Positions 4,501-47,832 of a stretch of DNA of 64,000 nt are shown here, in pieces (the stretch's first letter is position 1; each line of letters opens with the position of its first letter). Source of the stretch: an uncultured virus (IMG/VR IMGVR_UViG_3300012012_002042) (lineage: Duplodnaviria > Heunggongvirae > Uroviricota > Caudoviricetes); IMG/VR virus record IMGVR_UViG_3300012012_002042. One strand, 5' to 3'. A model generated the notes under the pieces. That model was not told where the DNA came from. It saw only the letters and a program-made list of their open reading frames with translations, and ran no database searches. Position numbers and translations under genes: made by a program.

Positions 4501-5607
4501 GACGCCCGCCTCGTCGGCCCCTACGGTGGTGTTGCGGACAAACCAGATCCAGACCGCGATCTGACAAGACCGATGTTGGACGAATGGTGGGAGGAGCGCG
4601 CCAAAGATGGCAACCTGCTCGACGTGAACGGCGCTGTCACACAGGGGTGGACAGGAGATTTGGTTCGCATCCACAGAAAACCGATCGATGGCGGCAAAAC
4701 CGAGATTTACATATTCAGACGCACCCTGACCAAAGACAACACCGGGCGGGATTTAATTGTGGGGCAGGAAGAGGAACCGGAAAAATTCACCGAGAGTTCG
4801 GCGCAAGGGAGCGCCGCCGGATTCAACGTGGACGCAGGTCTCCCTTCTGGCTCTCCGTATGTGACTGTCTCCCCGTCCACTTTGTTTGGGGATTTTCCCG
4901 CGGGAATGAATGCAACCACTCCCGTGAGTTTGCATGTTTCCACTGGTGATAAAATCTATGCGGCGGTGAAATGGGATGGGAGGGTGTTGGCTAACGGGAG
5001 CACCACCGGCACCTTCACCGACCGCGCGATTGGAAAAGCAGCGACCACGCCGACGAACGATCCGCTCAACGGGCTTTACTATTTCGAACTCGCCTCAATC
5101 ACGGGGATGACGTCGTATCCCGACGGTAGTATGGCTCCCGTAATAAATCAGACGTTGTGGGGACCGATTGACAAGCTGCCTGGGACTGCGGTGAACCCGT
5201 ATCTGATGCCGCCGTCGCCAGGCACGCAAACCGTCGCCCAATCATACTACTGGGATTTGACGGAGGCTGGTAAGGGCAAGGACGCCGATAATGCTATCCT
5301 CTCGCCGACCTACGATTCAATCAAGTTGTACAAATCTGGCTTTGTCCGATTCGTGAATGACGCTGGCAATTTGAAGGCGTTCGTGAGTCCAGTAACGATT
5401 AATTCCACAGGACAGACCGTGGCTGCGGGCCCAGAAGAACTCGTCGTGGAGCACGAGCAGATCGACGTGCTCGTTGGAATGCGGCTTTACGACGGGCATT
5501 TGGAGGGGCAATATAGGAAGGTGTGGGTGTTGAAAGATGATGCTGGTGATACTGAGTGGTTGCCTCTGCTCCCGACGCGGCCCAGCTCCCCAGTAACCTG
5601 TATGTAA
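1555..5607 (+). CDS. large Cys-rich repeat protein (DUF5977-like repeats), probable tail fibre/structural adhesin
   Basis: About 11 repeats of the form C-x-[WY]-x-N...C...V-x-A...S-x-x-SQADA...L (e.g. AAAYVSTISQADADSMAL, ANSFPSTVSQADADMQAL); tail gene context. Confidence 0.6.
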   Translation: MDPSEAAKRQAARAAARAPGCASNIPTTLPESPIVDRPPDVRRPPAPCDPATPDVQQPFVVPTDRPSVPPLLNTPGTIQIGNDEIVLTCADVEGAGPSGDSVTILQSIITQDFVWLDIPTLTPEQLDFISRADVSQINTRPLLDGSLEDVMNLLHVTRAQAESIQTAAAAMKASLNAQAEATARAAIVCGWYNSVAQSACPGTALDNPQIDDRVNNPSVVPAGSIFSRISEADATANAQTLALGALRCFYGNVEVTVTCADLGFTDPVATDAGVSPVGIQRVSSVTVLANTVVTDNQATSDLMARDRAMSQLVCAYLNPLKLYSCEDISAMGTLLQAPGSVQNQISGNPVTAEFGVTLSTKSPNDAEAQAFDAAKALLICEWGNSPLTLTCTAQTVPNPLNPAESVTMNPSTKSPVLTVTVEAAAYVSTISQADADSMALLFARAQLDCLYCNSITPPTCVPESIYAGVADGTIPLPVPLSLVTSLWADDATLGAAAGTFCDADPTIAAQLAATVLPIPISALAPSATQCRYGNDRLNYSCINGQLPSPPDLQNSVTIAKDTYMVSLADVPATFTEAQEGVPREKLYANALALVDARATLNCAWWNVEKIVTCESAFSKLNVHPTAIGSAEHPVLIEANSFPSTVSQADADMQALSVGMAQLDCFYLSRKTTVLCGARSIDANISLLPSSYNMVYGSGALVPSDGSGFGSALLVSPDSTGSLENPIKVEEAEHASTQSQLHADTLAFQEAIRHLDCFWYNFSVTLRCGAASSLGWALWMNLLPDSAYIWDGNGFLGGGFVTPAIGSAEQPALIEGKTYKSKISRYDACVRAYNTAYSMLTCCWGNQITDRVCGQVEGGPIPDEDVVSTPSAFAHLKAHLDQYTVPSCVSQGAANISAWDLLGAMLVCSYTNKAVGAGNGGDAKCAAQNCETEGPTDMPEGLFHSPLSSAFADVEAKLFLSSLQECKCTTNPYVLGSGKFACNDARLVGPYGGVADKPDPDRDLTRPMLDEWWEERAKDGNLLDVNGAVTQGWTGDLVRIHRKPIDGGKTEIYIFRRTLTKDNTGRDLIVGQEEEPEKFTESSAQGSAAGFNVDAGLPSGSPYVTVSPSTLFGDFPAGMNATTPVSLHVSTGDKIYAAVKWDGRVLANGSTTGTFTDRAIGKAATTPTNDPLNGLYYFELASITGMTSYPDGSMAPVINQTLWGPIDKLPGTAVNPYLMPPSPGTQTVAQSYYWDLTEAGKGKDADNAILSPTYDSIKLYKSGFVRFVNDAGNLKAFVSPVTINSTGQTVAAGPEELVVEHEQIDVLVGMRLYDGHLEGQYRKVWVLKDDAGDTEWLPLLPTRPSSPVTCM

Positions 5608-5610
5608 TAC

Positions 5611-6180
5611 ATGTCCGCGACTCTCCTAGTGAATTGCGAAAACGACGGGCTACTGACGGACTGCTCCGGCAGCAGTCTTCTGACGGATTGTGGAGGCGTG
5701 GTGAGGATCAGATACACATGGACTTCCGATCCTTATGAGCCCGGCTTCTGGACAGAAACTTCCGGCGGCTCGGTTTACACCAAGCCGAAGGGTGGATTAG
5801 ACCTATTTTCTGAAATCACGTTTTTGGATCGCAGTCTAGGCTGGATTAGTAACGGCCTCGGCCCCCAGTGGTATATGACTTGGTTCGTCAACGAGATACC
5901 GTATGTGGGAGGTTACGAGGAATACACCGTGCGTGTTGACGACGCTCATACGGACGGAATGTGGGCCTCGTCAACCGCGATATACCTTAAAGCGGACTGG
6001 TATTATACTCCTGGAAACTCGCTGACAGTGACCGTTTCTTATCACGGCGTCACGCAGGTAAAAACAATTTCTCCCGGAGAAATCACAACAATTGAAACTT
6101 TTGTCGATGGCCCCTCACAGATCGTGACACCTGTCGGCTACATCACGGTGAATGCTGACGGGACGTTCACCCTCTTTTAG
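5611..6180 (+). CDS. hypothetical beta-rich structural protein
   Basis: 189-aa ORF 3 nt after the fibre gene; rich in Trp, Tyr and Thr. Confidence 0.55.
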   Translation: MSATLLVNCENDGLLTDCSGSSLLTDCGGVVRIRYTWTSDPYEPGFWTETSGGSVYTKPKGGLDLFSEITFLDRSLGWISNGLGPQWYMTWFVNEIPYVGGYEEYTVRVDDAHTDGMWASSTAIYLKADWYYTPGNSLTVTVSYHGVTQVKTISPGEITTIETFVDGPSQIVTPVGYITVNADGTFTLF

Positions 6181-6202
6181 AATCAGAGTTGCGAGTAAAA
6201 CT

Positions 6203-6237
6203 TTGACACGCAAACATTCTTCTGCAATTTCAAGAAT
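6203..6237 (+). promoter_or_regulatory. sigma70-like promoter, likely leaderless transcript
   Basis: TTGACA at 6203, then N16, CAATTT, and ATG 7 nt later (6238). Confidence 0.45.
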
Positions 6238-6939
6238 ATGAACATTTCCGACTGCCTCCACATTCTCGCTTCACTTCTGGCCGTGGTTCTTTCCGGCTGT
6301 TATGTGTCCTCCGCCTGGAATCACACGACGTTGCCGATCATGCTTTTCCGTCCGAAAAATGTTTTCACCAGCGACGAGTGGAAAATCTACGCAACATTGC
6401 GCTGGCCAAAATTCTTCGGCAAATTGTTCACCTGCCCCACATGTCAGATCCCGTGGATCGCCGCCGCACTGACGACAATTGCAGGAATGGTCGACCATCA
6501 ATCCTTCCAGGCGCGTCTGTGGGTATTCGCCTGCGCCATCGGGATTATGAGTCTGATCCTGCGGAATCGGACGGCACCCAAACCACCAAGTCCAGCCAAG
6601 GTGCCGCCGGCTCCGGAACCACCAGATGCTCTGGATAAAATTAGCAAGTTGGATGTCGCGAAAAAATACATGGAGGCTTTCAGCATAAAGGCGAATGCCG
6701 CCGGAAACGTGACGCTGAGTGCAAACACCATTTCGGACAAACTCCGGATCGTCATGCCATTCTTTTCGGAAGCGCCGTGCTGGTTTGACGGGTGCTCTGA
6801 ACTGCGCGCCAACTACCAGAAGGAACTCGAGCCCATGCGGGCAGACCCGAACTGTCCCGAGTGTGCTGAAGGTGACCTGATGCGGAAATACTCTCTGCGT
6901 GTTCACTCGAAACTGTGGCCTGTCGAGAATGCCTCCTGA
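6238..6939 (+). CDS. membrane protein with DUF1360-like CxxC segment and Cys-containing C-terminal domain
   Basis: Hydrophobic helices; GKLFTCPTCQIPWIAA motif; C-terminal CWFDGC...NCPEC. Confidence 0.55.
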   Translation: MNISDCLHILASLLAVVLSGCYVSSAWNHTTLPIMLFRPKNVFTSDEWKIYATLRWPKFFGKLFTCPTCQIPWIAAALTTIAGMVDHQSFQARLWVFACAIGIMSLILRNRTAPKPPSPAKVPPAPEPPDALDKISKLDVAKKYMEAFSIKANAAGNVTLSANTISDKLRIVMPFFSEAPCWFDGCSELRANYQKELEPMRADPNCPECAEGDLMRKYSLRVHSKLWPVENAS

Positions 6940-7114
6940 TTACGATATTCCTGGGCTGCATCAACACCCGGACCTCTGGTTGAAACTGGAAGCCCGCCTC
7001 AAGAGAATTTCCGCCTCGGGGAAATGCTGCACTGGAGAGCGGGAGAAAGCCCTGGCCGAGTTCCATAATGAGGTCACCGCACGCGAGCTTGCCCGAAAGC
7101 GAACAGGCAGCTAG
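6929..7114 (+). CDS. small hypothetical protein
   Basis: ATG at 6929 overlaps the end of the upstream gene; 61 aa. Confidence 0.5.
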   Translation: MPPDYDIPGLHQHPDLWLKLEARLKRISASGKCCTGEREKALAEFHNEVTARELARKRTGS

Positions 7115-7124
7115 ACTCACCCCC

Positions 7125-7877
7125 GTGACTGTCACACCGCCGCCACCCGCCAGCGTCAATTTGCCGCCACCTTACCTGAGCACTTTCCAGCAGTGGAAGG
7201 AGACAGGGGATCCGACGCACCTGCATGCGACGGTCAAACATCTCCAGCCTGCCATCAATGGTGTCCTACGTTCCATGGGCAGTGCGGACGACCCGACCAC
7301 CGCGGTGAAAGCGAAGATCATGGCGACCAAAGCGGTGCGGACCTACGACCCGAATATGGGAGCCGGCATGCCCACTTGGGTCAGCCAGCAATTGCAGCCT
7401 CTCCGGCGATTCCGGCGAATGGAGCGTTCCACGGTGCGGGTGCCGGAGCGTATTCAGCTGGATGCACTGCACATCATGAAGAAGGAGCAGGAGTTTACGG
7501 ACAAGCATCAGCGTGATCCGGATGTCGAGGAGCTGGCGGATTTCGCCAAGATGCCGGTCAAAAGAATTTCCGAGGTTCGACATCGGTTCCGGAAAGTCGT
7601 GAGTCAAACGGCGATCGGGGATGCGGCCACGCAATTTTCCAATCAACAGCCAACGGATTTTTCCGACGAAGCTCTCGGCTACGTTTACAGCGATGCTGAT
7701 CGGGTGGACAGGGCGATCATCGAAATGAAGACGGGATATGGCGGCAAGCACGAGCCGATGGAACCGAATGTGATCGCGCAGAAACTGGGGCTGTCTCCGG
7801 TGCAGCTCTCCCGCCGCTCAGCCCGAATGGCGGTAAAGATAGACAACATCCGGGACGCCCTCTCACGCACAGCATGA
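7125..7877 (+). CDS. RNA polymerase sigma-70 family factor (regions 2-4)
   Basis: KAVRTYDPNMGAGMPTWV (region 2), STVRVPER, RDPDVEELADF (region 3), C-terminal HTH NVIAQKLGLSPVQLSR (region 4); start GTG 7125 or ATG 7068. Confidence 0.85.
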   Translation: MTVTPPPPASVNLPPPYLSTFQQWKETGDPTHLHATVKHLQPAINGVLRSMGSADDPTTAVKAKIMATKAVRTYDPNMGAGMPTWVSQQLQPLRRFRRMERSTVRVPERIQLDALHIMKKEQEFTDKHQRDPDVEELADFAKMPVKRISEVRHRFRKVVSQTAIGDAATQFSNQQPTDFSDEALGYVYSDADRVDRAIIEMKTGYGGKHEPMEPNVIAQKLGLSPVQLSRRSARMAVKIDNIRDALSRTA

Positions 7878-8222: not shown

Positions 8223-8630
8223 ATGGCTCTCAAGGGATTGAAAATTCAAATCAACTCGAATGGTGTCGGCGCCATTCTCGCGGAAAGCGTTGAAGGCATC
8301 GGGTGCAATCACCAGAACGCGCTGGTGATCATCACGACAATGGAGGGGTCGGACCAAGCATTTCCGAAGAAGGGTACCGAACTCCTGATGCAGGGATTGC
8401 AGAATGCGATATTCGACAATGCCAGCGCTCAGCATTCGGCGAACTTTGCTGCGCTGAGCGCTGTGTCATTTTGTCGGAAGACGACTTCTCCGTTGCACCG
8501 CGACATCGGGATCAGTGGAATCCGATTGATCCCTCGCGTAATCAGGGTGCAATATTTACAGTTCCAAGCCATAATGACCTTCGCGAATGGTGAGAAGATC
8601 ACTTCCGCTCACAACGTAACCTCGACATGA
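8223..8630 (+). CDS. putative baseplate wedge protein (gp25/gpW-like)
   Basis: 135 aa with GSDQAFPKKGTEL motif, directly before a baseplate J-like gene. Confidence 0.55.
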   Translation: MALKGLKIQINSNGVGAILAESVEGIGCNHQNALVIITTMEGSDQAFPKKGTELLMQGLQNAIFDNASAQHSANFAALSAVSFCRKTTSPLHRDIGISGIRLIPRVIRVQYLQFQAIMTFANGEKITSAHNVTST

Positions 8631-10381
8631 CCTCCATCTGGAATCCCGATTTTGTTGCCTCGTATTTTCCCTCGCTGAAGGACATCTCTCCTGAGGTCGT
8701 TCAGTCCGCCCGCAATCGGATGGAATCGTGGCTGCGTGCCGGCTGGCCTGATGAGGACATGCAACCTGGCAGTGTTGTCGGTGATCGTGTGCTGACCCCA
8801 TTCGCATTCCTCATGGCCGGGCTCGAGGTAGCGGCCGGACGTCTAATGTCTGATTTGGACACGAGTCAGATTGCACAAAATATCATCTTCAACTGCGACT
8901 TTGTGTCGGCGTTCCTGCAGAATTTCGCGGTCCAGGATTCCGCGGTATTGCAAAGCTCCGGGATGCTTCAGCTGGTTCTCTCCGACGATGCAGCCATCCA
9001 GTTGGATCGCAGCCTGCAATTCCAACTCGACGGCAACTCCTTCAGCATGGATCTGCCATACTCAGGCCCAATGAACCTCGTTCCCGTGGGCGGCGTGGCC
9101 TTGCCAGGCCAGAACTTCGTGATCTTCACCGATCTCGGGAACTCTCGCTACGCCGCGAATGTCAGGGTGCTCGGCGGCAGCGGCAAGTCTGTGACCGCAA
9201 ACACGACAGCCGCGACGAGCGTGCCAGTTGCCAACCTGCTGGCGGCCACAGCGCTCCATGATTTCTACGCAGGCAGCGCTGTCACGTCGCTCCCAGAGTT
9301 GGCGCGGATGACGCGTCAGACATTTCCGGCGGCCGCACTCACCTCGCGGGCGAGCGCCATCAGCGCCATGACGCGCTTGTTCCCTGGGCTCATAGGTGCG
9401 TATCCCAGCATGACTGGTGACGCCGTCATGCTGCGTGATTCTGTGAATGCCCTCGGGATTGCCAGTCCGCGTGTGGACATGCATGTGCGGTCGCCCTACT
9501 ACGATTATTTGGCGTCCGTCACGGTGAATATTCCGTTTTTCGCCACACAGAACTCGGCGGCGCTGAATCAGTTCATCACGGAACTCGCTCTCCCGGGGAA
9601 CCCGACATTCATCAAGGACGTCACCTCAGTGTCGAATCCTGACGTCGTTCTGATTCCCGGCATCAGCGCCAATGTGTGGTCTGCCAGTCTGAACAACGCC
9701 AGGTGTCCGCTCCTGACCTGCGCCGGCACTGCGGAAGAACAACTATGGCTCACCTTTCCGATGCCGGTCGATGCGGTCACCAGCTCTGATTTGCTGGTAA
9801 CGCAGACCGACGGGGACGGGAACCGGTTCGCTCAATTCGTCATCCGCTATTATTACGACCCAGTGCTGGCGTCTGTTGCCGCACGTCTCGACAGTCCGGA
9901 CTGCAAGCCTGCCAACGCTGAGATTCTCACGCGTCCGTTCATCCCAGTCATCATCAGCAATTTTCAGATCCGCTACACCAAGCTGCCTGGGCAGGTTGTG
10001 GACACGGCCTCCGCGAGTGAAGAGATTTACCAGTATCTGCGCACCCTGACCTCGCCCGAGAAATATTCAGACGCCAAGGTTTCCGACGCGCTGTTCTATC
10101 GTGGGGCACATGGCGTCCGTGGAATAAGTGTGAGCGCGCGTGTCTGGTGGTCTGCCGGTCATTTGCTGATTCCGAACGAAGGCGTCACCCCGGACACGGA
10201 TTACGTCACAGCTCTGGCCAACGCCGCGAATTATCCGGTCCCGGCAGTTTACATCCGCGCCACGTCTGATTTGGAACTGGCCGACTTCGTGGAACTCACG
10301 TCCAAAGCTGCAGCGAAAGCGGCCACCATCTGTTTCGTCATCGACAAGGAGAATATCACTTTCGTGGAGGAACTCCTGTGA
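8627..10381 (+). CDS. baseplate J-like / wedge protein
   Basis: N-terminal WPDEDMQPGSVVGDRVLTP motif; size and position after the gp25-like gene. Confidence 0.65.
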   Translation: MTSIWNPDFVASYFPSLKDISPEVVQSARNRMESWLRAGWPDEDMQPGSVVGDRVLTPFAFLMAGLEVAAGRLMSDLDTSQIAQNIIFNCDFVSAFLQNFAVQDSAVLQSSGMLQLVLSDDAAIQLDRSLQFQLDGNSFSMDLPYSGPMNLVPVGGVALPGQNFVIFTDLGNSRYAANVRVLGGSGKSVTANTTAATSVPVANLLAATALHDFYAGSAVTSLPELARMTRQTFPAAALTSRASAISAMTRLFPGLIGAYPSMTGDAVMLRDSVNALGIASPRVDMHVRSPYYDYLASVTVNIPFFATQNSAALNQFITELALPGNPTFIKDVTSVSNPDVVLIPGISANVWSASLNNARCPLLTCAGTAEEQLWLTFPMPVDAVTSSDLLVTQTDGDGNRFAQFVIRYYYDPVLASVAARLDSPDCKPANAEILTRPFIPVIISNFQIRYTKLPGQVVDTASASEEIYQYLRTLTSPEKYSDAKVSDALFYRGAHGVRGISVSARVWWSAGHLLIPNEGVTPDTDYVTALANAANYPVPAVYIRATSDLELADFVELTSKAAAKAATICFVIDKENITFVEELL

Positions 10382-11796
10382 CGTCAGAACATCCGATTGC
10401 CGAACAGGCGTTCACCATGCACGGGCGCTTGGGAACTTTCTGGGTGGAAAGTTTTTCCGGCGACATGGAAGTCTTGCTGCGTTCCATGTCGTCTTTACAG
10501 GCCAGATCCTCGGCTCCGTTCACATTGCTTGGAGGCATGCGCGCGGCGGCCGGCGCTCCGGCTGTGCAATGGGCTGGGCGGCGGTGGAGCTTCAAGGCTG
10601 GGGATGTGGTGGCGATCGGACCATTTCTTCAGCAGCGCATTCTGACGAAATGGGCTGCCTCTGGCTACTCCACCGGATACGTCACGCGTCGAGTGCGGGC
10701 GGCTGACGTGGAATATCTTCAGAGCGGGCATTTTACTTTGGAGAATGAGCTCGACGCGAATGGGGTGAAACTTTTCCAGACTGAGAGTTCCCAATACTGG
10801 CTGTTTCCATCGCCAACCGGAGTTCCCGTCATTTCCCCGACGCAGGATGAAGTCGTGTTGAAATACGCTCTGCCAATTCCGCCGGGACAGTATCCGACCA
10901 GTCTCCGGAATATTGCCGGACGTGATTTCGCACTCGGCGTCGATTATCGGCAATCCGGCAATTTGCTGATATTCGGCTGCGAACATCCCGATTCTCTTTT
11001 CCCGCAACGGGTGATCCTCGCACCTGCGGGCTGGGAGAAAACGTCTGGCCTGCTGAATTACACTAACAAACTGGATGGCGTCATGCCATCTACATTTCCT
11101 GGAGAATATTATCGACAGAACCAAAGCGCTGAATCCTGGGTGCGCGCGTTGGCAGTGGCCAGCGGCATGCATGTCATGGAAAGCGCCGCAGTCATTGCGG
11201 ACGTGGAGACGATAGGCCGGGACACGTTTTACACCACCACGGCTGGAGATGTGCATGCGGTGGACTATCCGCATCGGCGTCACACCGTTGGCGACAGTCT
11301 GATTCGCGGGGACATTCTCGGCAGTCCGTTGCGCATTTATCACAAAAGGCACGCTGGCGATGGCTCGTGGTGGAAACAATTGGACTGGTCCGCCGGACTG
11401 AGCATGGATTCCTTCTGCCTGGTCAAAGGCCTGACGGCCCCGGACGCTTCCGTCGGGGCTTCGTGGGTATCCACAGAGGATGGCAAGTATCACATTCGTT
11501 TCCCGCTGACTGGCACGTCGGACGCTCAGGATGCGTATTGGAATATGGTGTGGGAGAACGAGCGGGTTACGGGGAAATATTTGAACGACATTGTGGGAAT
11601 CGCGAGCACGTCTCAGATTGTTCCGGTCAATCCTGTGAGTCTGTTGTTCTCGTATGGGTTGAACGAATCCGCGTGGGTTCTCGACCGATACAATTTCCAA
11701 TTATGGGATGGCAAATCGCAGCGCGACTTCTCCCATTTTTTTAAGTCGGAACGTCCATTCGGTTCTGTCATGATCCTGCGAGAATCCACCATCTGA
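10378..11796 (+). CDS. putative baseplate wedge subunit
   Basis: GTGA overlap with the J-like gene; LGTFW near the N-terminus and RPFGS near the C-terminus; context. Confidence 0.5.
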   Translation: MTSEHPIAEQAFTMHGRLGTFWVESFSGDMEVLLRSMSSLQARSSAPFTLLGGMRAAAGAPAVQWAGRRWSFKAGDVVAIGPFLQQRILTKWAASGYSTGYVTRRVRAADVEYLQSGHFTLENELDANGVKLFQTESSQYWLFPSPTGVPVISPTQDEVVLKYALPIPPGQYPTSLRNIAGRDFALGVDYRQSGNLLIFGCEHPDSLFPQRVILAPAGWEKTSGLLNYTNKLDGVMPSTFPGEYYRQNQSAESWVRALAVASGMHVMESAAVIADVETIGRDTFYTTTAGDVHAVDYPHRRHTVGDSLIRGDILGSPLRIYHKRHAGDGSWWKQLDWSAGLSMDSFCLVKGLTAPDASVGASWVSTEDGKYHIRFPLTGTSDAQDAYWNMVWENERVTGKYLNDIVGIASTSQIVPVNPVSLLFSYGLNESAWVLDRYNFQLWDGKSQRDFSHFFKSERPFGSVMILRESTI

Positions 11797-12206
11797 TGCT
11801 CACGCTCACACGACATTCACTTTCCGACACGGCGTCCCTGGACGGAGCTGCGCAGCACACGTGGCCGCTGAAGATTGTCTGCACGCCGGACAATGGAAGC
11901 ACCCTCTCGCCAAAGATATTCGTATTCCACGCGGCGAAGCCGGATGCCGCCGGCCCGCAAGATGAATTCGAAGTGGTGGCGTCGGTGCATCAGATGCAAG
12001 ACATCCCGGCGGATCAACCGCACTATGTGGACGGGGATCCGGCGAAGTGTGTGCCCTACTACCGGCTGGCTGAATTGACGTGGCACTGCCTGTCGCCGGC
12101 TGAGGCTGACGATCTGTGGGAGCATATTAAGGAAGACGTGACGGATCTGGTGGGGAATCAGAAAGCTCTCGGCAAATTGAAGACAGAGAGCACGATCAGC
12201 ATTTAA
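11796..12206 (+). CDS. hypothetical protein (tail cluster)
   Basis: TGATG overlap; 136 aa. Confidence 0.6.
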   Translation: MLTLTRHSLSDTASLDGAAQHTWPLKIVCTPDNGSTLSPKIFVFHAAKPDAAGPQDEFEVVASVHQMQDIPADQPHYVDGDPAKCVPYYRLAELTWHCLSPAEADDLWEHIKEDVTDLVGNQKALGKLKTESTISI

Positions 12207-12223
12207 GCCACCACCTGAATTTT

Positions 12224-12925
12224 ATGTTCCAAGTCGGTAATGCCACCCTAAATCGTAACAGCTCCAAGAATGGCAGCGTTGTGTTCTTGAAGGCTTTTCG
12301 CACGGTCCCTGTCGTCAACACCTGGGTCCAGAGAGTGACCGGCGACAATCTGATCAGCGTTTATCCTGCCAACGTGACCGAGACTGGATTCGATTACGAA
12401 CTGGACCAAGTCCCCGATGACACGGACGATTATTCCCTCGGATGGATGGCAGGCGATGCGTCCATTGACACTCCAGCTCATCCTTCTGTCAGTTACGGAG
12501 GAGGCGGCGGTGCGTCACCAACAGTGACGGCTCCTCCGCCGGCGAGGCCGACGGGATTCCGCGGGTTGCCGAGCATGCCTTTCAGCGGCAGGCTGGGCCC
12601 AGCCTACGGCGTTTTTCCGGCGGATGCAGGCGGGAAAGAAGAGCAGATCGAATCGGATCCGGACGGCTCTGCGGAAGTGGTTCTATATTACGCACCCAAC
12701 AGCGCCCTGCTCGAAAATATCCACGTGCTGGTTGTGGATATCAGCGACGTGGTGATTTACGAAACCACGGACCGGACGGACGTGATGATCACATCCCGAG
12801 GGAACGTGGACGTTCACACATTGCACGTGCCTGTGGGGACACTGCCGCGGCAGCCTGCCATCTGGCAAATCAAGGTCGGCAACGGGCCAATTCGGAGATT
12901 TATCAGCGGGAGGAACATGCGATGA
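12224..12925 (+). CDS. hypothetical two-domain protein with Pro/Gly linker
   Basis: 233-aa ORF with GGGGGASPTVTAPPPARP linker. Confidence 0.55.
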   Translation: MFQVGNATLNRNSSKNGSVVFLKAFRTVPVVNTWVQRVTGDNLISVYPANVTETGFDYELDQVPDDTDDYSLGWMAGDASIDTPAHPSVSYGGGGGASPTVTAPPPARPTGFRGLPSMPFSGRLGPAYGVFPADAGGKEEQIESDPDGSAEVVLYYAPNSALLENIHVLVVDISDVVIYETTDRTDVMITSRGNVDVHTLHVPVGTLPRQPAIWQIKVGNGPIRRFISGRNMR

Positions 12926-13107
12926 ACCAAGAAGAGAATTACGGACAAATTGCCTACGAGACATACTGCGAAACTCGCGGTTGGAAATCGTTCGACGGTA
13001 AACCTCTACCGCAATGGAGGCAGCAGAGCGAGGCTCTTCGGGAAGCGTGGATTGCCGCGGCAGGGGCCGTGCTGAACGAGCATCGAATCCAAACCGGACC
13101 TGGATAA
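12922..13107 (+). CDS. small hypothetical phage protein
   Basis: ATGA overlap; YGQIAYETYC...LPQW...REAWIAAA pattern common in small phage proteins. Confidence 0.6.
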   Translation: MNQEENYGQIAYETYCETRGWKSFDGKPLPQWRQQSEALREAWIAAAGAVLNEHRIQTGPG

Positions 13108-13451
13108 TGCTGGAATACCTGATCGGTGCTCATTTGATCGGGGACTTCTTACTGCAGGATCACAGCATGCAGACCAAGTCTGAAAAGTCCTGGGTCTGCA
13201 CAATTCACCTGCTGCATTACGCGCTGCCTTTTATCTTCATGCTGTTTATGGGTGTGAAAATCCCTGCATGGATGTTCCTGGCAATAATGATCGAGCACTG
13301 GCTACAGGATCGCTTCCGGCTGCATCTGCTGTGGATGAAGTGGTATGGTCAGACTCCGCCGAGCATCTGGCGTGAGGGTCCGCTCTTCGTGGACCAGGCG
13401 ATGCACATCGGGTTCATGTGGTTTCTCTGTCTGATCAACCAGCCTGTGTGA
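13107..13451 (+). CDS. DUF3307-family membrane protein
   Basis: AHLIGDFLLQ, HLLHY, HWLQD and VDQAMHI motifs; TAATG overlap start at 13107. Confidence 0.75.
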   Translation: MLEYLIGAHLIGDFLLQDHSMQTKSEKSWVCTIHLLHYALPFIFMLFMGVKIPAWMFLAIMIEHWLQDRFRLHLLWMKWYGQTPPSIWREGPLFVDQAMHIGFMWFLCLINQPV

Positions 13452-15936
13452 AGTCTGCCATCGAGGGAATGCCTTCGCGTTTCATGATCGGCATCTGCCC
13501 GTAGAAATTGCTCAGCAGGTCGAGCATGGAAATGGCATCAACCGTAATTGATTCCGCCGCCGGCAGGACCGTTCTGCAGATGGTGGTCAGCTCGAGGTAG
13601 AGTTCCTCCATATTCACATCGAGACCCTTGGTGGAAATAATCACCGTCTGATCCATCAAGTGTTGCGCCAGATGATTCTTCGTGAGGTGGAATGGGATCT
13701 GGTTGAGCAACCGCTCCAGACGCAGATGCACCGGGGAAGACACCGGCCACGTCAATCCGGTTGCCTGACTGATGATGGAGGCGCCTTCGCGCGCAAGCGC
13801 CGTCCCGTAATCGACACTGCTGAACATCTTCAGCATGCCGCCGGCTGTCTTCATGATCCATTGCAGACACTCCTTGAATATCCACGGCAGAGTCGGCAGA
13901 AGAAGATTCAATTCCTGATCGGTCGCCGTTCCGTAAATAGGCGTTCCAATATCTCCCAGTGCGACGAAGGTTTGACCGGCCCGTTCGATCTGTCCTCTGG
14001 ACGCGCCGGTGACGAGCATGGGGAAGCCGCGGATGCCTTTGATTTCGATGCCAGACGATGAGCGAACGCTAAAAGAAAACGGTTCGGTTTGCCCGAGGGC
14101 TCGGAAGATATTGCGCAGCAGATTATGGCCTTCGGAAGTGAAAGCGATGGCCAATGGTTTCACGGCAAAATCCGCGAAACTGCGTCCCAGCAGTCCGATC
14201 AGTTTACTGACAATATCCGCCAACACGATCGGGACATCGGTGTGGATGGCGACTGGGGCGGGTTGCATCTGCAAATCGTAGCAGTGCCAGAAGTCATAAT
14301 TCGGATTTGGGGTCCGGACATTGGTTGCCCATTCTTCCGCGCTGATCCGGCCCCACGGCGTCCAGAATCCATTCTTCCGGTGATTCCATCCTAAGCCGTC
14401 CATGCCTTCGTGGCGGTCGAGATTTGATATCTGCTCACGGAAGTATCCAAGCAGGCGGCGCGCGTAATGTCGTTCCTTGATGGTCGGGGTTGGAGAGCCT
14501 TCGACGGAATTTTTGGCATGTTTGAATTCCGTCATGCGGACGGCATTCTCCATGTCTTCGAGGCTGGCCAGGTCTGCGCTGGAAATGGACAGCGGATATT
14601 TGGCCCCTCGGAAATGCATCGTGCCGGTGTGCGCGTAAACGCTGGTGTCGGGGAAGATGATATTGTCATCGAACTCGCAAGTGAAGTTCGTCAACTCCAC
14701 CCGGCTGCCATCAGTGCGTATGGCGTAATAACCGTCGGCCGCGTGATAGAACAGAATGCCGTCATGGGAGATGATGTAGCGGGTCTGCCGCATTTTCTCG
14801 AGCGTCTGCGCCTCTCGCATATATCGTAGCTGATTGAGTTCAAACAGCAATTGTTTGAATTCAGAACTGCTGAATTGCAGCGCGCTGATATTATCCTCGG
14901 TCTCCCTTGAAATGCCGTTCTTGATGATACCAGTCAGCGCATGCTGGATGATGAACTTGGACCAGCTCAGATTGCCCGCGACCGTCGAAACGGTGACAGG
15001 CATTTTGGAGGCTAGATCTGCGACTCCCCGAAGAAGTTTTACCGGGACGTCCGTCGGATCGTAAGTGATCCCATTGAACAACCAGTCGTTGTAATTTCCC
15101 CGAGGCTCGTAGACCATCCCGACGGAGAAGATATCTGGACGCAGACGCGCGTGCTCGGTGTTTGCTTGAATGGCTGTGATCGCTTCGGTGTGCAGATGGA
15201 GCCGTGTGGCTCTGGGGTTGCGGTCGAGTAGTCCGGTGAAGCCAAATTTATATTCCTCGAAGTGGTGCAGCACCATTCGGGTGCTCGAGTTGGATTGGAA
15301 GAAAAAGAATCCGGCTATCACGGACGGAGCGGCAAAAAGCGGGACGACCAGCATGGCAGATCCAGGCCTGAGGGAATATTTTGGGAGACCGACATCGGGA
15401 CAATATTCGGCGGAAAGTTCCAGAAGCTCGGAGAATTGTTTTCTGGAAAGGCAGAGTATGGAAGCCGTCTGCACGGAAGCATCCATACTCTGCGTCTTCA
15501 ACCAGGACCGGGCCTGGATCATTTCAATGGACCCTATTTCCGTGTCTGGTTTCCCGTGACGGATGAAGAAGTCCAGGAGTGCCCGCCTTTTCCGCAGCCC
15601 TGCTTCGATGTCATACAGCGCGCTTTCTGACAGGTGGTTGAAGCGCTTCGGGTAGGCGGCCCGCACCGTTTGGAGGGCTTTCCCGTAGCTCTGGTCAATG
15701 GCTGCGATGATGTCGATCGCAGTACCTGTGCGGAAGTTGCAGAAGCGGTTCTCGCACAGCACGTGGTGCGTGTAGATATGCAGGGTCTGCCTGCAGGCTG
15801 GGCAGGTCGTGGTTTGCCCGCCTGGATGTGCCCGGCTGGCATGGAAGTCATACAGGGCTTCGGAAATGGAAATGGATTGAGAAATCAGGTCTGCGGTCAC
15901 TGGGCAGAGGCTAGAGGGGTTTTGAGCATACGGCAA
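13435..15936 (-). CDS. large protein with N-terminal primase-type zinc finger; degenerate primase/helicase-like
   Basis: CPAC...CENRFC Zn finger followed by IDIIA; LVVPLF..IAGF; GLGWNHRKNGFWTPWG (DUF927-like); no intact TOPRIM or Walker A seen; start uncertain. Confidence 0.5.
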   Translation of the reverse strand: MPYAQNPSSLCPVTADLISQSISISEALYDFHASRAHPGGQTTTCPACRQTLHIYTHHVLCENRFCNFRTGTAIDIIAAIDQSYGKALQTVRAAYPKRFNHLSESALYDIEAGLRKRRALLDFFIRHGKPDTEIGSIEMIQARSWLKTQSMDASVQTASILCLSRKQFSELLELSAEYCPDVGLPKYSLRPGSAMLVVPLFAAPSVIAGFFFFQSNSSTRMVLHHFEEYKFGFTGLLDRNPRATRLHLHTEAITAIQANTEHARLRPDIFSVGMVYEPRGNYNDWLFNGITYDPTDVPVKLLRGVADLASKMPVTVSTVAGNLSWSKFIIQHALTGIIKNGISRETEDNISALQFSSSEFKQLLFELNQLRYMREAQTLEKMRQTRYIISHDGILFYHAADGYYAIRTDGSRVELTNFTCEFDDNIIFPDTSVYAHTGTMHFRGAKYPLSISSADLASLEDMENAVRMTEFKHAKNSVEGSPTPTIKERHYARRLLGYFREQISNLDRHEGMDGLGWNHRKNGFWTPWGRISAEEWATNVRTPNPNYDFWHCYDLQMQPAPVAIHTDVPIVLADIVSKLIGLLGRSFADFAVKPLAIAFTSEGHNLLRNIFRALGQTEPFSFSVRSSSGIEIKGIRGFPMLVTGASRGQIERAGQTFVALGDIGTPIYGTATDQELNLLLPTLPWIFKECLQWIMKTAGGMLKMFSSVDYGTALAREGASIISQATGLTWPVSSPVHLRLERLLNQIPFHLTKNHLAQHLMDQTVIISTKGLDVNMEELYLELTTICRTVLPAAESITVDAISMLDLLSNFYGQMPIMKREGIPSMADFTQAG

Positions 15937-15967
15937 CTGTCGTGTGAAATAAAAGCCCTTTGCGAGT

Positions 15968-16337
15968 TATATGGAATTGCTGAGGACATCTTCTCCTCCT
16001 CTGAATTCCGGCTGCGCCGCGAGACACCAGGGCAATTCTGTTTACTTCCATAAAGGTGTAAAACACGAATGTCGAAAGGTCATTGGCGCAGCCGGAATTC
16101 AGGGGAGGGATTTTCCGCGCGAGGTTACTCACGCGGAGACAAGGCGCGGTGACGTTCGGTCACTGACGCCAGAGCGCTCGTGCCACATGCGCAGGGGACC
16201 CCTACTCGGGTGGGTTTATTGAGAGGCCCCCGGACGGCCTTTCCTAATGTGGTGAGTCCGGAGAAAAGCGGCGGGCTGCGCGGAATGCGCTCGGGTGCAA
16301 ATCAATGCGCCTACGACATGGCCCGCCGTCTTTTCTT
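15968..16337 (+). ncRNA. candidate structured non-coding RNA of unknown family
   Basis: Perfect 18-bp inverted repeat 16001-16018/16085-16102, extended by G-U pairs; at least five further hairpins; two potential pseudoknots; lies between divergent genes. Confidence 0.55.
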
Positions 16338-16372
16338 TTTACATCGCGGTGAATTCGTGGCAGAATCGCCGA
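16338..16372 (+). promoter_or_regulatory. sigma70-like promoter, leaderless
   Basis: TTTACA-N17-CAGAAT-N6-ATG(16373). Confidence 0.5.
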
Positions 16373-17449
16373 ATGCTGGATTATCTAAAAGACAAAAACC
16401 CGGGTTGGCTTCGCGCGGTAAATGGCGCCATGCCCGATTGGGTGAAGGACGCTCCGCATCCGTCCGAAGACGAACTCGTGAAAATGTCCTCTGCCACTTT
16501 CGCGGATCCTCTGCACCGCCTGCACCCGCTCCACACACCAGCGGCGGCTTTTTCTTCCCTCGCTTATCTTCTGGCAAATGGAGCCTCGGCAGAATCCCCG
16601 GAAGTTCAAACCGCCAAGACTGCTGCTGCAAAATGGGAAATCGAGCAGGCAGAACTGGATGCACTCATCGAGAGCGTCACCGTGCACATCAAGAGTGCCG
16701 CAGCCGACGCTCCTGAGATCCCGCTCGTCGCCATGACTGTGAAAAACGCCGCCGGAGACGCCGACGGCTTCTACGATATTTCCACCGTAGGGCAGATGAT
16801 GGAGTCGGCGGAGCAACTCGCACGGGATTACAGCGATCAGAAAATTCCAGCCCTGTGGGCCAAGGAAGCCTGCGCCAACATCAAGTCGGCTGCGGACGCG
16901 CGCGGCGTGCCCCTGTCCGAATTGCATCCGCTCGTGAAGCACATGACTGATGAGCGTGTCCGCGATTTCGATCGCGCGCGCGAACTGGTGGGCTTCCGCA
17001 AATATGCGCGAGTGTCCACGGCGGATGTCGAGACCTACCGTGACATCGTCAATTCGGTCGAGCACGAGGAGGTGAGCGTCGAAGAGGGTGTCGAAATGAT
17101 GGAGGCGCTGGACCAGACGCACCTCATCAAATACGCGGGCCTGCAGACAGATCCGTGGACCATCCTCAATTCCGGTCACACTCAGGATGAGATCGTCAAG
17201 ATGGCGGACTCCTCGGTGCTGATGGCGGACACCATTGTGCCTGCACACGTCATCGCCCACATCCCCGAGGAAACTGTTCGGATGCGCTTCGCCAAATCTG
17301 CGGCGGATCAAGTGTGGGAGATCGTGAAAACCGCTTCCGTGGCTCCCCCAGACGCTACTGTGATGGCGGGCAATCTGGAGCCTGATGTTCAACGCGGCGT
17401 GTTGGCCCTCGCGCTGCAGATGGCTGGCGGGTTGCCGGCGCCTGCATAA
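16373..17449 (+). CDS. putative head/virion protein with multiple K-x-A motifs
   Basis: FADPLHRLHPLHT motif; KTAA, KSAA (x3), KMAD, KTAS; near the terminase; ORF-track start is 16295. Confidence 0.55.
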   Translation: MLDYLKDKNPGWLRAVNGAMPDWVKDAPHPSEDELVKMSSATFADPLHRLHPLHTPAAAFSSLAYLLANGASAESPEVQTAKTAAAKWEIEQAELDALIESVTVHIKSAAADAPEIPLVAMTVKNAAGDADGFYDISTVGQMMESAEQLARDYSDQKIPALWAKEACANIKSAADARGVPLSELHPLVKHMTDERVRDFDRARELVGFRKYARVSTADVETYRDIVNSVEHEEVSVEEGVEMMEALDQTHLIKYAGLQTDPWTILNSGHTQDEIVKMADSSVLMADTIVPAHVIAHIPEETVRMRFAKSAADQVWEIVKTASVAPPDATVMAGNLEPDVQRGVLALALQMAGGLPAPA

Positions 17450-18030
17450 TGCTCAGCAAAAACTTTCCTTTCAAACGGGAAACGTGCGCCTCGGCTTTGG
17501 CTGATATCAGCACTCCGGCTGTGGTGCTCTTCGCGATTGTCTCGGCCGCCTACGGGAGCGAGATGTATCCAGACGAGCCTGGCGAGGAGCCGTGGGATCC
17601 GGTGACGTTGTGGCATCATCTGCGGGAGGATTTCAAGGTCGAGGTTTCGATTGAAGCGGAGAACCGGCTCAACGCGATTCGCACGGCGATCGAGACCGAT
17701 TTATTTTATCTGGATGTCGAGGCACTCGAAGCCATCACGATGGCCATTGTGCACGGCTCTGTGGACGATGCGATACTGGGTGAATCGTCGGACCTTTCCA
17801 CTGTGGAAATCATGACGGCGATTTTCGAGATCGAACTCGTCCGAGGAGACAGCCATCCGGTTTATTCGCAGGGCGTGGCGGCTTTCATCGCAGGTGTCAT
17901 GCAGGACGATGTGGATTCCGATGACTCGGGACAGGACACGGCAGATTCCTATTTGGTTCTGCACAAGCACGAGGTGGAAGAGTGGTTCCACCGTCTGGGT
18001 GTGAAGGAAGAGGTTCTGGCAGGGATCTGA
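17449..18030 (+). CDS. hypothetical acidic protein (packaging/head cluster)
   Basis: TAATG overlap; 193 aa. Confidence 0.6.
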   Translation: MLSKNFPFKRETCASALADISTPAVVLFAIVSAAYGSEMYPDEPGEEPWDPVTLWHHLREDFKVEVSIEAENRLNAIRTAIETDLFYLDVEALEAITMAIVHGSVDDAILGESSDLSTVEIMTAIFEIELVRGDSHPVYSQGVAAFIAGVMQDDVDSDDSGQDTADSYLVLHKHEVEEWFHRLGVKEEVLAGI

Positions 18031-18036
18031 TCCCGG

Positions 18037-18300
18037 ATGATTGGAAAAACAATACGCACGGGAGAACCGTGCCCAAATTACAAACGCAAAATGAGCATCA
18101 AAAAGAAGCGCAGCAAAATAATGCCGCACCATAAGGAACGCGCACACGGAGCAATGGACATGATTGGTCTCACCGAGGAACTCCCTCCGCTGGCCATGAA
18201 GGGAATCAAAGAGGATGTGAAACTGGAGGATATGGAATTGGAGCCAGGCCAGCCGTTCGGCTGGTCACCCGCTGACAGCCGTCGAAAGGCGCTGTCCTAG
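18037..18300 (+). CDS. small hypothetical protein
   Basis: 87-aa ORF converging on the terminase; start uncertain. Confidence 0.4.
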   Translation: MIGKTIRTGEPCPNYKRKMSIKKKRSKIMPHHKERAHGAMDMIGLTEELPPLAMKGIKEDVKLEDMELEPGQPFGWSPADSRRKALS

Positions 18301-20163
18301 ACGTCCAGTCATATTGCCGCCGGCCCCGCCAAAATTGAACATGCGCTGCAATTCCCTCTTCAGCGCTGGGTCATCGTAGAGTGGTTCCCCGAGAACCATC
18401 TTGGCGAGGAAGGTGGCGAAATTGATGGCGTGCAGTCCGTCGTCCGGTTTGGAGCCGTGGCGGCGGTAGAGGAAGTAGGGATTGGCTGAGGCGATGTCGG
18501 CCGGCAAACGGCGGAGGTTGAGAATGTCGGTGATGTAGGGGCGGGCCAATTCCCATGCGTATGTCCGGATACGCGGCTTCTTGTCCTTCAACATGCTGAA
18601 CAGCTGCGTGATCGTCTCCGTCTTGTTGATGTTGTAGTGGTTCGGCAGCATGCTGTCCTTGGCCTTCGCGATGAGCCGATAATTGGGTGCTTGGTAGCCA
18701 AAGATGAAATGCTTCGACGGATCCATCCCGGGGACGTTGTGGATCTCCAGGTTGTAAATCGAGCCGGCCGAGAAATCTGAGGCGAGGTAGCTGCCATTAT
18801 ACTCCCGATGGTTTCTCACGATCATTTGCAGGATGGACTGGTAATCCATCGCCGAATACTTCTCCATGTGCAGGATGTCGAATTGTTTGTCGTGCGTGAT
18901 GCCGACGATCGCGTGAAAGGTGTAGGACTGCTTCGTCTTGTCCACGGGATTCCAGTCGGAGCCGCCCCAGTCCACACCGGACACGATCATGTGGTAGTAG
19001 CCCTTCTTGCAGCGCTCCTTCAGCGCGGCTGGAGTTTCCGGAAGACAGCAGGCAAGTTTGAGATCTGCCTCGGAAATTTCACCATGACCCTCCTCCGTGG
19101 GAATCCCGAGGACTTCCTGGATGAATTTCTTGATCTGGCCGATGCGGGTGTATTCCTGCAGCTGACGGTAAACGGGGGCCCATTGATTGTAGTCGGTGAC
19201 AAATTCCGGAATCAGGATTTGGGGGACATGATATGAAATGAACCCCTCCTTGAATCGAGATTCAGAGCCATGCACCCATTGCCCGTCCGCCATGTTCAGA
19301 AGCCTGTTCGTAAACGGACACGTGGGACCGTCCACCTGGATGATTTTCAGAACCTCATCGGGGTCTCCGCAGTTGATCCAATTCTTGCCGTCCATGGCCC
19401 GCGCATGCCACGTGCCCTGGCTGCCAGATTGGTATTTGGCTTCGAGGAATGTGCTGAAGTCGAGCGAGGTGCCTGCGAAGAGTTTGGACTTCATCTGGCC
19501 GGCGCGCAGCACCTGCTCGACTTCCGGCATGAAGGTCGCGTCAAAGTGTTGCGATTCGTCCACGATTATTTCATCGGCACTCTTCGAGCGAATATCCGAC
19601 ACGCTGGTGTCGACACGCACCATGTTGATCGACGAGGAGTTTGGGTATTCCTTGAACTGCAAATTCTGTCGGAAGCCGGTGACGTTTTTGAAGTAGCGGA
19701 AGTGACGTTCCATGTCCCGCATCCTGTTCGCATACGTCTTCAAATAAGACATGTGCGGCGCGATGTAGATCGACGACCAATTCGGGATCATGTGCGAGAG
19801 GATCAACTGCCGCGCGATGAAGGTGGTCGACTTTGAGATTTGCCGGCTTCCGCGGATCGTCGTTTCGCCTTGCGGATTGATGTCGGTCAGCGCGAATGCG
19901 AACGGTCGGTTGAAAAGCGAGAGCGGTCTGGCATGCTGGATTTCGTCCGTAGGCGGGAGAGCTTCCGGGAAGAAGAAGGGGAAGAGAATGCCGCAGTTGT
20001 AATTCGCGGTTTTGAAGATACGATAAACCTGATCACGGGTCTCACCGCTGAAGGCCGCGCGCGCTCCCAGGCGTTCGCAGACTTCATCCAAACGGCCCAG
20101 TTCAACCTCAATGCGGTTGACAAGCTCCGTGTCTGTCTGTAACGCACTGTAAAAATCTTCCAT
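18265..20163 (-). CDS. terL: terminase large subunit (lambda gpA-like)
   Basis: Walker A RGSRQISKST, Walker B IIVDESQ, coupling motif FAGTS, nuclease GVDWGG and DDGLHA; ATG at 20163 (ORF extends to 20202). Confidence 0.88.
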   Translation of the reverse strand: MEDFYSALQTDTELVNRIEVELGRLDEVCERLGARAAFSGETRDQVYRIFKTANYNCGILFPFFFPEALPPTDEIQHARPLSLFNRPFAFALTDINPQGETTIRGSRQISKSTTFIARQLILSHMIPNWSSIYIAPHMSYLKTYANRMRDMERHFRYFKNVTGFRQNLQFKEYPNSSSINMVRVDTSVSDIRSKSADEIIVDESQHFDATFMPEVEQVLRAGQMKSKLFAGTSLDFSTFLEAKYQSGSQGTWHARAMDGKNWINCGDPDEVLKIIQVDGPTCPFTNRLLNMADGQWVHGSESRFKEGFISYHVPQILIPEFVTDYNQWAPVYRQLQEYTRIGQIKKFIQEVLGIPTEEGHGEISEADLKLACCLPETPAALKERCKKGYYHMIVSGVDWGGSDWNPVDKTKQSYTFHAIVGITHDKQFDILHMEKYSAMDYQSILQMIVRNHREYNGSYLASDFSAGSIYNLEIHNVPGMDPSKHFIFGYQAPNYRLIAKAKDSMLPNHYNINKTETITQLFSMLKDKKPRIRTYAWELARPYITDILNLRRLPADIASANPYFLYRRHGSKPDDGLHAINFATFLAKMVLGEPLYDDPALKRELQRMFNFGGAGGNMTGRLGQRLSTAVSG

Positions 20164-20258
20164 GTCGACCAGCACCTCACCACAGAAAATCCGCAGTGTC
20201 AAACCGGGCGTTTTTCCCGCGGCGAGAATTGCTGCGAAAATGCCAACCCTGAAAGTTC

Positions 20259-30603: not shown

Positions 30604-31082
30604 ACGCTTACAGGATTCTGACCCAGACTGACAAGGGCTGCAGGGAGAGGGATCGGCTTTTGCACGGAAATATTCCGGAAGCCGCGCGGACCGTTGAGTG
30701 GTTGAATTATTTGGCGGGGTCGGCGTTGGGAGAGAGTTGGGCGCTCGGTTTCACGCTCAAGGAGACTTCGGCGATCATCACAGGAATTATTGGCACGGAT
30801 AGATTCGCCTCGGTGATGGCCGCGCTCCCGTATAATTCAGTGTTTCTCGTTTCCCGTTACTGGAAAACTGTGGCGCAGGAAGTCAAGAGAAGGGGCAATT
30901 ACATTTGCGTGACCTGCGCGGCATATGACACAAAGGAAATGCGCGCGCATCATCAGACATACGTCCGACGGGGACTCGAGCATCTCCACATGGCAGACCT
31001 GGTCTGCATGTGCGACCCCTGTCACAAAAAGCTGCACAAGATTGGGCGTCAAAAAGTTTCCGGAAACTTTTTGACGCGATGA
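30600..31082 (+). CDS. HNH endonuclease-domain protein
   Basis: CVTC...AHHQTY...DLVCMCDPCHKKLH. Confidence 0.8.
   Translation: MNAYRILTQTDKGCRERDRLLHGNIPEAARTVEWLNYLAGSALGESWALGFTLKETSAIITGIIGTDRFASVMAALPYNSVFLVSRYWKTVAQEVKRRGNYICVTCAAYDTKEMRAHHQTYVRRGLEHLHMADLVCMCDPCHKKLHKIGRQKVSGNFLTR
31046..31077. repeat. 32-bp perfect palindrome
   Basis: gcgtcaaaaagtttccggaaactttttgacgc equals its own reverse complement. Confidence 0.95.
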
Positions 31083-46800: not shown

Positions 46801-46863
46801 GGAATTTGAAATAGCGCGACGTTTCGCGGTATATGATTTCGACACCTTCACAGGTTGTCGTCA

Positions 46864-47766: not shown

Positions 47767-47769
47767 TTG

Positions 47770-47799
47770 AAAAGGGGCGGGCAGCCGTCCCTTTTCTTT
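47770..47799 (+). terminator. terminator-like hairpin
   Basis: gaaaaggggcgg...ccgtcccttttc followed by ttt. Confidence 0.5.
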
Positions 47800-47832
47800 A
47801 CGTCCCGCAGAAAATGCTGTAGTATTTCCATC
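47797..47832 (+). promoter_or_regulatory. sigma70-like promoter, leaderless
   Basis: TTTACG-N17-TAGTAT-N7-ATG(47833). Confidence 0.5.

Follow-up and report, generated by a model that had tools for sequence, protein, structure and literature searches.

What occupies the intergenic stretch that folds more strongly than any other part of an uncultured phage's DNA? We addressed this question for a stretch of 64,000 nt (the window, used in full throughout), in which the region concerned, 15901-16372, lies between two divergent genes. An earlier note on the same DNA had read most of it as a single structured non-coding RNA of about 370 nt with two possible pseudoknots, and had proposed a packaging RNA, a RAMP partner or a regulator of RNA polymerase as its function. 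Our analysis found the stretch non-coding, structured, and enclosed between a promoter box and a terminator-like stem, but not a single densely pseudoknotted fold, and nothing that we found pointed to any of the three functions. The evidence supports instead a promoter-to-terminator non-coding unit at the distal end of an array of cassettes that resemble the promoter-early stem-loop (PeSL) cassettes of T4-type phages.

To the left of the stretch, on the minus strand, lies a gene for an 821-aa protein (13435-15900), whose GTG start at 15900 was set by alignment to a homologue. The protein had no Pfam or PHROG match; by language-model features it resembled clusters of Zn-ribbon DnaG/Toprim/DUF927 primase-helicases (scores 0.91-0.94). 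To the right, on the plus strand, a conserved gene for a 358-aa protein begins at ATG 16373, a start backed by a homologue of 51% identity and by a further protein of 358 aa (P0004). Family and profile matches predicted from the sequence of this protein included no recognisable RNA-binding family, profile searches of solved structures returned nothing below E 0.07, and its structural model was poor and helical (pLDDT 61, pTM 0.31). The large terminase subunit (TerL, phrog_675) is encoded on the minus strand at 18265-20202, 2 kb from the structured stretch, so the genomic setting is the one that had been described, with divergent starts at 15900 and 16373 near the terminase. Elsewhere in the window, a DEAD/Helicase_C helicase gene (42778-45588, plus strand) is interrupted by an intein with Hom_end_hint, Hom_end, and LAGLIDADG_3 matches, and a 1094-aa protein (34566-37847, plus strand) matches the uracil-DNA glycosylase superfamily, a 3'-5' exonuclease, and family A DNA polymerase.

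The phage has few relatives in existing collections. Its TerL is at best 22-23% identical to that of a cultured phage, and the cultured-phage collection contained neither a DNA match to the window nor relatives of either flanking protein. Scans of IMG/VR found no relatives, a genome collection held no relative of the primase-helicase, and a set of 5.8 billion proteins gave only three relatives of the 821-aa protein and two of the 358-aa protein. Twenty metagenome runs from lakes or freshwater, spread over 14 studies, contained variants of the window (best word share 0.67). The only RNA run with any words of the window (X20, word share 0.05) had no contigs on 15000-17300, an outcome that weighs neither way on transcription.

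The structure of 15940-16339 is real and goes beyond chance. The plus strand of 15940-16350 has a minimum free energy (MFE) of -199.4 kcal/mol, compared to -149.0 ± 6.3 kcal/mol in 100 shuffles (z -7.97), and the minus strand of the same stretch has an MFE of -177.4 kcal/mol (z -7.62); measured against shuffles the two strands are thus nearly equal, while the plus-strand fold exceeds the minus-strand fold in stability by 18-22 kcal/mol. After GC correction, 15940-16339 ranked first of 318 sliding 400-nt segments on both strands (-4.73 and -3.06 sd). The long hairpin, H1 (15994-16109, plus strand), has a stem of 25-26 bp and a partly paired loop of 64-66 nt. Eighteen of its pairs are perfect (16001-16018/16085-16102), and the stem extends to 25 bp with two G·U pairs (15995-16019/16084-16108), both as previously described; an extra G·U pair at 15994/16109 is seen by eye. 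No inverted repeat in the 64 kb is longer than H1, with its arms of 24-25 nt. Its loop looks AT-richer by eye than the surroundings.

Downstream of H1 on the same strand, two smaller predicted hairpins, H2 (16112-16139, 8 + 3 bp) and H3 (16143-16170, 4 + 7 bp), correspond to those reported near 16114-16137 and at 16143-16170. The part between 16177 and 16261 is ambiguous, with competing helices that include a 72-nt stretch closed by gccacat/atgtggt, and it also contains a small terminator-like hairpin (16201-16214) followed by TTTATT. The last element, again in agreement with the earlier description, is a branched, terminator-like stem (16262-16342) with a 16-bp base (16262-16277/16320-16336) and a T-rich run that reaches 16340.

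The two pseudoknots drawn across these elements fared less well. The complementary segments exist in both cases, but runs of such length are expected by chance, with 23 runs of 8 bp observed versus 21 ± 4 in shuffles for the first and 147 runs of 6 bp versus 141 ± 14 for the second. The 5' arm of the first (15973-15980) falls in the -10/start region of the promoter box described below, and hence is probably outside the RNA, and the ccggac/gtccgg pairing of the second competes with the gccacat/atgtggt helix in MFE folds that contain no knot. The G·U pairs had been taken as a sign of selection on RNA structure. Indeed, the plus strand has 13 G·U pairs versus one A·C mismatch and the more stable fold, but the minus strand has eight versus two and a z-score of almost the same size, so the sign is weak and the sense strand is favored only mildly.

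Two further structured places were seen in the window. The second most structured stretch, 46740-47939 (plus strand, GC-corrected z down to -3.6), lies within an unbroken 300-aa frame without a family match, after a second promoter box (46807), and includes a terminator-like hairpin at about 47771-47800. A palindrome with perfect 18-nt arms (GCGTCAAAAAGTTTCCGG and CCGGAAACTTTTTGACGC) occupies 31046-31077, at the end of an ORF (30600-31082).

The stretch looks non-coding. Its sole long ORF (15971-16219, 83 codons) had a codon score of -0.118 under a codon model trained on 16 window genes, whereas none of 120 chunks of real genes scored below 0.047, and it lacks the pattern of GC by codon position that these genes display. 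With Rfam 15, no family matched at its curated gathering score anywhere in the window, and 15800-16500 gave only three matches (E 2.3-7.9), at 8-19 bits versus thresholds of 61-70; the same tools scored a tRNA-Met of the relative L001 (see below) at 72.6 bits. The judgment that the element is neither tRNA nor tmRNA held, with no ARAGORN gene in the window and no Rfam tRNA match at E up to 10. A tRNA remnant was considered on account of strings of 9 and 7 nt shared in order, by eye, with the L001 tRNA, and was demoted to a minor alternative because no tRNA model matched.

Signals for transcription in the plus direction bracket the region. A phage promoter box, TGAAATA-N14-GTTATAT(GGA), lies at 15945-15975 on the plus strand with a predicted start at about 15980-15983. 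The general form, TGAAATA-N14-GNTATAT, recurs exactly at 15945 and 46807 in the window, and the 46807 copy precedes a real 300-aa gene; the invariant positions of the box alignment (A3) are TGAAATA...C..G.TATAT. At the other end, the stem 16269-16277/16320-16328 (9 bp) followed by TCTTTTCTTTTT has the make-up of an intrinsic terminator, except that the short loop is replaced by a loop of 44 nt with two sub-hairpins, and a terminator scan did not call the branched stem 16262-16336. Together, box and stem make an RNA of about 355 nt plausible, and on these sequence signals the unit is probably transcribed.

Each flanking gene also has a promoter-like site of its own. The primase-helicase gene is preceded on the minus strand by TTGCCG-17-TAGCCT (15908-15936, by eye), 7 nt before its GTG, and L001 has TTGATA-17-TACTAT in the matching place, ending 7 nt before the ATG. 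The 358-aa gene is preceded by TTTACA-17-CAGAAT (16338-16375 together with the ATG, plus strand), which lies 6 nt before the ATG and overlaps the U-run of the terminator. The same hexamers recur in the H1 loop as TTTACA-16-CAGAAT (16035-16062, minus strand), a predicted site that points left, towards the primase-helicase gene. These sites, 16035-16062 (minus) and 16338-16366 (plus), are the only two of their kind in the 64 kb (expected 0.00), and may form a divergent pair of a second promoter class; no counterpart was seen in the 40-nt loop of the L001 hairpin. A protein encoded at 7068-7874 (plus strand) matches Sigma70 region 3 and another at 49233-49913 (plus strand) matches RNA polymerase Rpb2 domain 3. 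These matches raise the possibility of transcription machinery redirected or supplied by the phage, perhaps in connection with the two promoter classes.

By eye, the starts of 35 window genes have almost no Shine-Dalgarno-like sequence, and in several of these genes a -10-like hexamer seems to stand 6-7 nt ahead of the start codon; together these features suggest leaderless or Shine-Dalgarno-independent initiation. The box also matches four bacterial contigs, about the number expected by chance according to a rough estimate. An exact box with the same GGAATTG tail was seen at 344-399 (minus strand) of a contig from a Chthoniobacter MAG (L004/L010, G001:C254), with a hairpin-rich leader of about 150 nt behind it. 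That contig is chromosomal and shares no protein with the window, and its box is either chance or, as a weak lead, a hint of a verrucomicrobial host.

To place these elements in an evolutionary context, we compared the window with the one relative for which DNA was fetched, a lineage represented by L001 and L002, which agree fully across this locus and have seven mismatches in all, none within 3666-7679. The comparison thus rests on two independent lineages, the window strains and L001. L001 is collinear with 8627-20202 of the window at 36-67% protein identity (about 51% for the homologue of the 358-aa protein); a gene for a DUF3307 membrane protein (13014-13451, plus strand), which overlaps the 3' end of the primase-helicase gene in the window, is absent from it. 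The counterpart of the structured stretch is found on the minus strand at 2821-2632, directly before the 360-aa homologue, and consists of a box, a hairpin, a terminator, a promoter-like site, and the ATG. The tail of this box (GTTATATAGAATTG) matches that of the window (GTTATATGGAATTG) at 13 of 14 positions, and the start region is partly conserved (GAATTG..GACA.AT). About 19 nt after the box stands a hairpin (2678-2767) of 10 + 14 bp with one T·T mismatch and 40 nt between its arms; 24 of 25 pairs are intact, and no inverted repeat in that 10.3-kb locus is longer. A 13-bp stem with T7 forms the terminator, and the gene's own promoter-like site and ATG follow. The L001 unit folds with a z of -8.10, about equally on both strands by z, and its sense strand has seven G·U pairs and no A·C mismatch (three and one on the other strand). 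The sequence of the L001 hairpin is unrelated to that of H1, with no loop or sequence motif in common. Hence the comparison supports a conserved core defined by arrangement, a long hairpin and a terminator with the same box before them and the same gene after them.

In L001 the hairpin unit is preceded by an array. Within 2632-4921 (minus strand), four box-led cassettes lie upstream of the hairpin unit, three with small genes and one with an ORF and a tRNA-Met; two of their products are present, without names, in the protein collection. The array has five exact boxes in 2.1 kb, every one of them oriented with the genes and 5-7 nt ahead of an ATG. It also has three terminators of identical sequence (GTCCGACAGCATTCGGAC plus a T-run) and a motif present five times, a T-run followed by ACCTATCYCA, with repeats in families D1-D4. 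The primase gene is 2.2 kb away from the hairpin, which nevertheless abuts the 360-aa gene. The cassette next to the primase gene (4883-4586) was considered as the counterpart of the structured stretch and rejected, since it is a different cassette with a fold z of only -3.1 and the true match is 2821-2632; it comprises a box, a 98-codon ORF of ambiguous coding signal, the tRNA-Met(CAT) at 4513-4585 behind that frame, and a terminator. The window has only two boxes and no repeated terminator, and therefore represents a collapsed form of such an array.

Differences among close strains converge on the same locus, where their breakpoints cluster. In strain X1, at least 99% alike over most pieces, 15954-15990 is exchanged for 945 letters, and in X13, about 92-93% alike, 15956-15994 gives way to about 670. 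The strain junctions, at 15953 and 15955, are within the box, which a loose end of X8 after 15953 re-forms at unchanged spacing. In X1, X13, and L001 alike, the extra material is confined to the interval from the box to the long hairpin; none separates the hairpin from the 358-aa gene. Both arms of H1 persist in X13, with a 64-letter spacer, and the X13 left arm is perfectly complementary to the right arm in the window, the wobble formed by T16000 and G having become a C-G pair. Behind H1, 83 other letters replace H2 and H3 (16114-16173). One base is inserted in X13 behind 16261, just before the terminator stem, and all six of its single-base deletions from 16262 on fall at 16279-16319, which places them in the inner branches and leaves the basal stem free of them. 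Relatives further carry single-base indels at 16205, 16206, 16209, and 16224.

These comparisons bear directly on the claim of one integrated, pseudoknotted 370-nt RNA. It is not supported, since near-identical strains swap its sub-domains and the distant relative has only the hairpin-terminator architecture in common with the window. Modular hairpins, and not a compact RNA fold, give rise to the strongest folding signal in the 64 kb.

The locus resembles a system known from T4-type phages, in which PeSL cassettes mediate insertions and deletions (PMC2839356; PMC4122927). PeSLs comprise repeated terminator and promoter motifs on either side of small orphan genes in a hypervariable region, and it is at these motifs that closely related T4-type phages begin to differ (PMC2839356). 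The L001 array has the same ingredients, with its repeated boxes and stem-loop terminators (five boxes, three identical terminators, five T-run motifs) flanking small orphan genes in a variable region whose flanks are collinear with the window, and the replacements in X1 and X13 and the loose end of X8 likewise begin inside the box. In contrast, PeSLs are described as terminator/promoter junctions with a sigma-70 consensus and a GGGG..CCCC stem (PMC2839356), motifs to which those of our phage are by that description unrelated, and the lineage itself is unrelated (TerL identity 22-23%). A conserved long-hairpin unit that closes the array is likewise not among the features of the PeSL description that we drew on (PMC2839356). 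Because the motifs differ from the ones described there, we regard the locus as an analogue of PeSLs and not as a member.

How might such a unit work? We favor, tentatively and at a probability of roughly 0.4, a cis-acting role in which the unit stops and disposes of transcription from an orphan cassette promoter, the last of the array, before it reaches the conserved gene. The box at 15945-15975 would start an RNA near 15982, which would fold at once into the 25-bp H1 and then into smaller, strain-specific hairpins, and would end near 16340, where the branched GC-rich stem and the U-run lie. The unit would thereby act as an insulator that keeps early transcription out of the downstream 358-aa gene, and the long H1 duplex would be a likely site for RNase III-type cleavage. 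H2, H3, and 16177-16261 would be interchangeable modules, or remnants that cassette turnover left behind, and would not belong to a single tertiary fold. Counting against this cis-acting role, and in favor of the trans-acting alternative considered below, a plain terminator would suffice as a stop.

Parts of this arrangement have precedents in well-studied phages. The lambda late promoter PR' gives rise to a short, terminated, non-coding 6S transcript, which ends at tR' just upstream of conserved downstream genes. The order of promoter, short non-coding transcript, and terminator before a conserved gene is the same here, but our locus showed no Q-like antiterminator, binding element, or pause signal, its box also drives ordinary small genes, and a promoter of its own seems to serve the 358-aa gene. 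The RNase III hairpins of the T7 early transcripts and of the lambda N leader are near-perfect, of about 20-25 bp, and placed shortly after a strong phage promoter, as is H1. Those hairpins lie within mRNAs and have genes after them, whereas here a terminator follows and the cleavage site is only predicted. The phi29 pRNA, a phage-encoded structured packaging RNA of a few hundred nucleotides transcribed from an early promoter, has a family in Rfam. It is comparable in being a structured phage RNA of that size; however, no Rfam family, that of pRNA included, reaches even E 2 at our locus, which lacks a conserved loop-loop pairing and belongs to a large genome with a conventional large terminase.

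A purpose-made RNA that acts in trans, formed by H1 alone or with H2, H3, and the 72-nt element, and serving as a double-stranded decoy or anti-defence RNA, as a regulator, or as a partner of the 358-aa protein, is unlikely in our estimation but is the main alternative. An additional 25-bp hairpin that has a promoter to itself and a start region conserved in part suggests that a hairpin RNA may be made on purpose, and the dedicated terminator, together with the retention of the hairpin's place and shape, though not its sequence, across phages at 51% identity, would fit such an RNA. So would the excess of G·U over A·C on the sense strand of both phages (13/1 and 7/0, versus 8/2 and 3/1 on the other strand), and array cassettes can carry RNA genes, as the L001 tRNA-Met illustrates. 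Lacking an Rfam match, the RNA would be new. It is difficult to reconcile with near-identical strains that swap H2, H3, and the 5' part, with pseudoknots at chance level, with the absence of any loop or sequence motif common to both phages, and with a 358-aa protein that has no recognisable RNA-binding family and a model of pLDDT 61. Somewhat less likely again is the stronger proposal that long-hairpin RNAs are a new kind of purposely expressed phage RNA, trans-acting (for instance as a dsRNA decoy against host defence or as a partner of the 358-aa protein) and kept by shape alone across distant lake phages. The same box could instead lead a leaderless mRNA for a small protein, of 81-83 codons from 15971 or 15977 and of 47 codons in L001, given that an open frame runs on from the box in both phages and that the other L001 boxes stand 5-7 nt before the ATGs of called genes. 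We consider this very improbable: the codon score is below that of every real-gene chunk, the window has no ATG or GTG at the expected start, the peptides of the two phages share nothing clear by eye, and the window peptide is unlike the 98-aa ORF of the other L001 cassette (E 5). In addition, X13 carries 10 single-base indels within 16205-16319 and a 60-to-83-letter replacement that would break the frame, and neither the exact ORF 15971-16219 nor the 47-codon ORF of the L001 unit is present in the protein collection.

The near-equality of the two strands by z, in the window and in L001, makes a role of the palindrome at the DNA level possible, such as an origin or loading site for the primase-helicase or a recombination hot spot, with transcription incidental. 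The position directly upstream of the 821-aa primase-helicase-like protein, the seemingly AT-rich H1 loop, and the clustering of strain breakpoints would be in keeping with that idea, which we nonetheless hold to be improbable, as 15800-16500 contains no direct-repeat families or iterons, the L001 hairpin adjoins the 360-aa gene 2.2 kb away from the primase gene, and T-runs and promoter boxes give the locus a clear transcription polarity. An equally small chance goes to functionless debris, an orphan promoter with leftover terminators and the decayed tRNA of lost cassettes. That a distant relative has a long hairpin in the corresponding position, with 24 of its 25 pairs intact, and that X13 retains the H1 arms both speak against debris, from which a preserved stem of 18 perfect and 25 total pairs is not expected if it evolves neutrally; the likeness to a tRNA is moreover undetectable by ARAGORN or Rfam. 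What debris would explain is the mosaic state of the locus between strains, the resemblance of the 16201-16214 hairpin and its TTTATT to cassette terminators, the position of the 72-nt element with its 7-bp closing stem, which is that of the pre-terminator tRNA in one L001 cassette, and the 9- and 7-nt strings shared in order with that tRNA by eye. Finally, 24-nt inverted repeats flank a 66-bp segment containing TTTACA-16-CAGAAT, with hexamers identical to those of the 358-aa gene's site, as in an invertible promoter switch. The segment is very short for this purpose, both contigs that cross H1 (X1 and X13, a small sample) have the window orientation, none of 12 scanned ORFs of 1555-25226 matches a recombinase family, and the 40-nt loop in L001 has no such promoter, so that we give the switch hardly any credence.

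If the hairpin RNA were to act in trans, it would represent a new class of phage RNA. If the cis-acting unit that we favor is correct, the shuffling of promoter/terminator cassettes known from T4-type phages would extend to an unrelated, uncultured freshwater lineage, with the added feature of a conserved long hairpin and terminator that close the array before a core gene. The locus would then offer a testable case of how phages shield core genes from a fast-changing accessory region.
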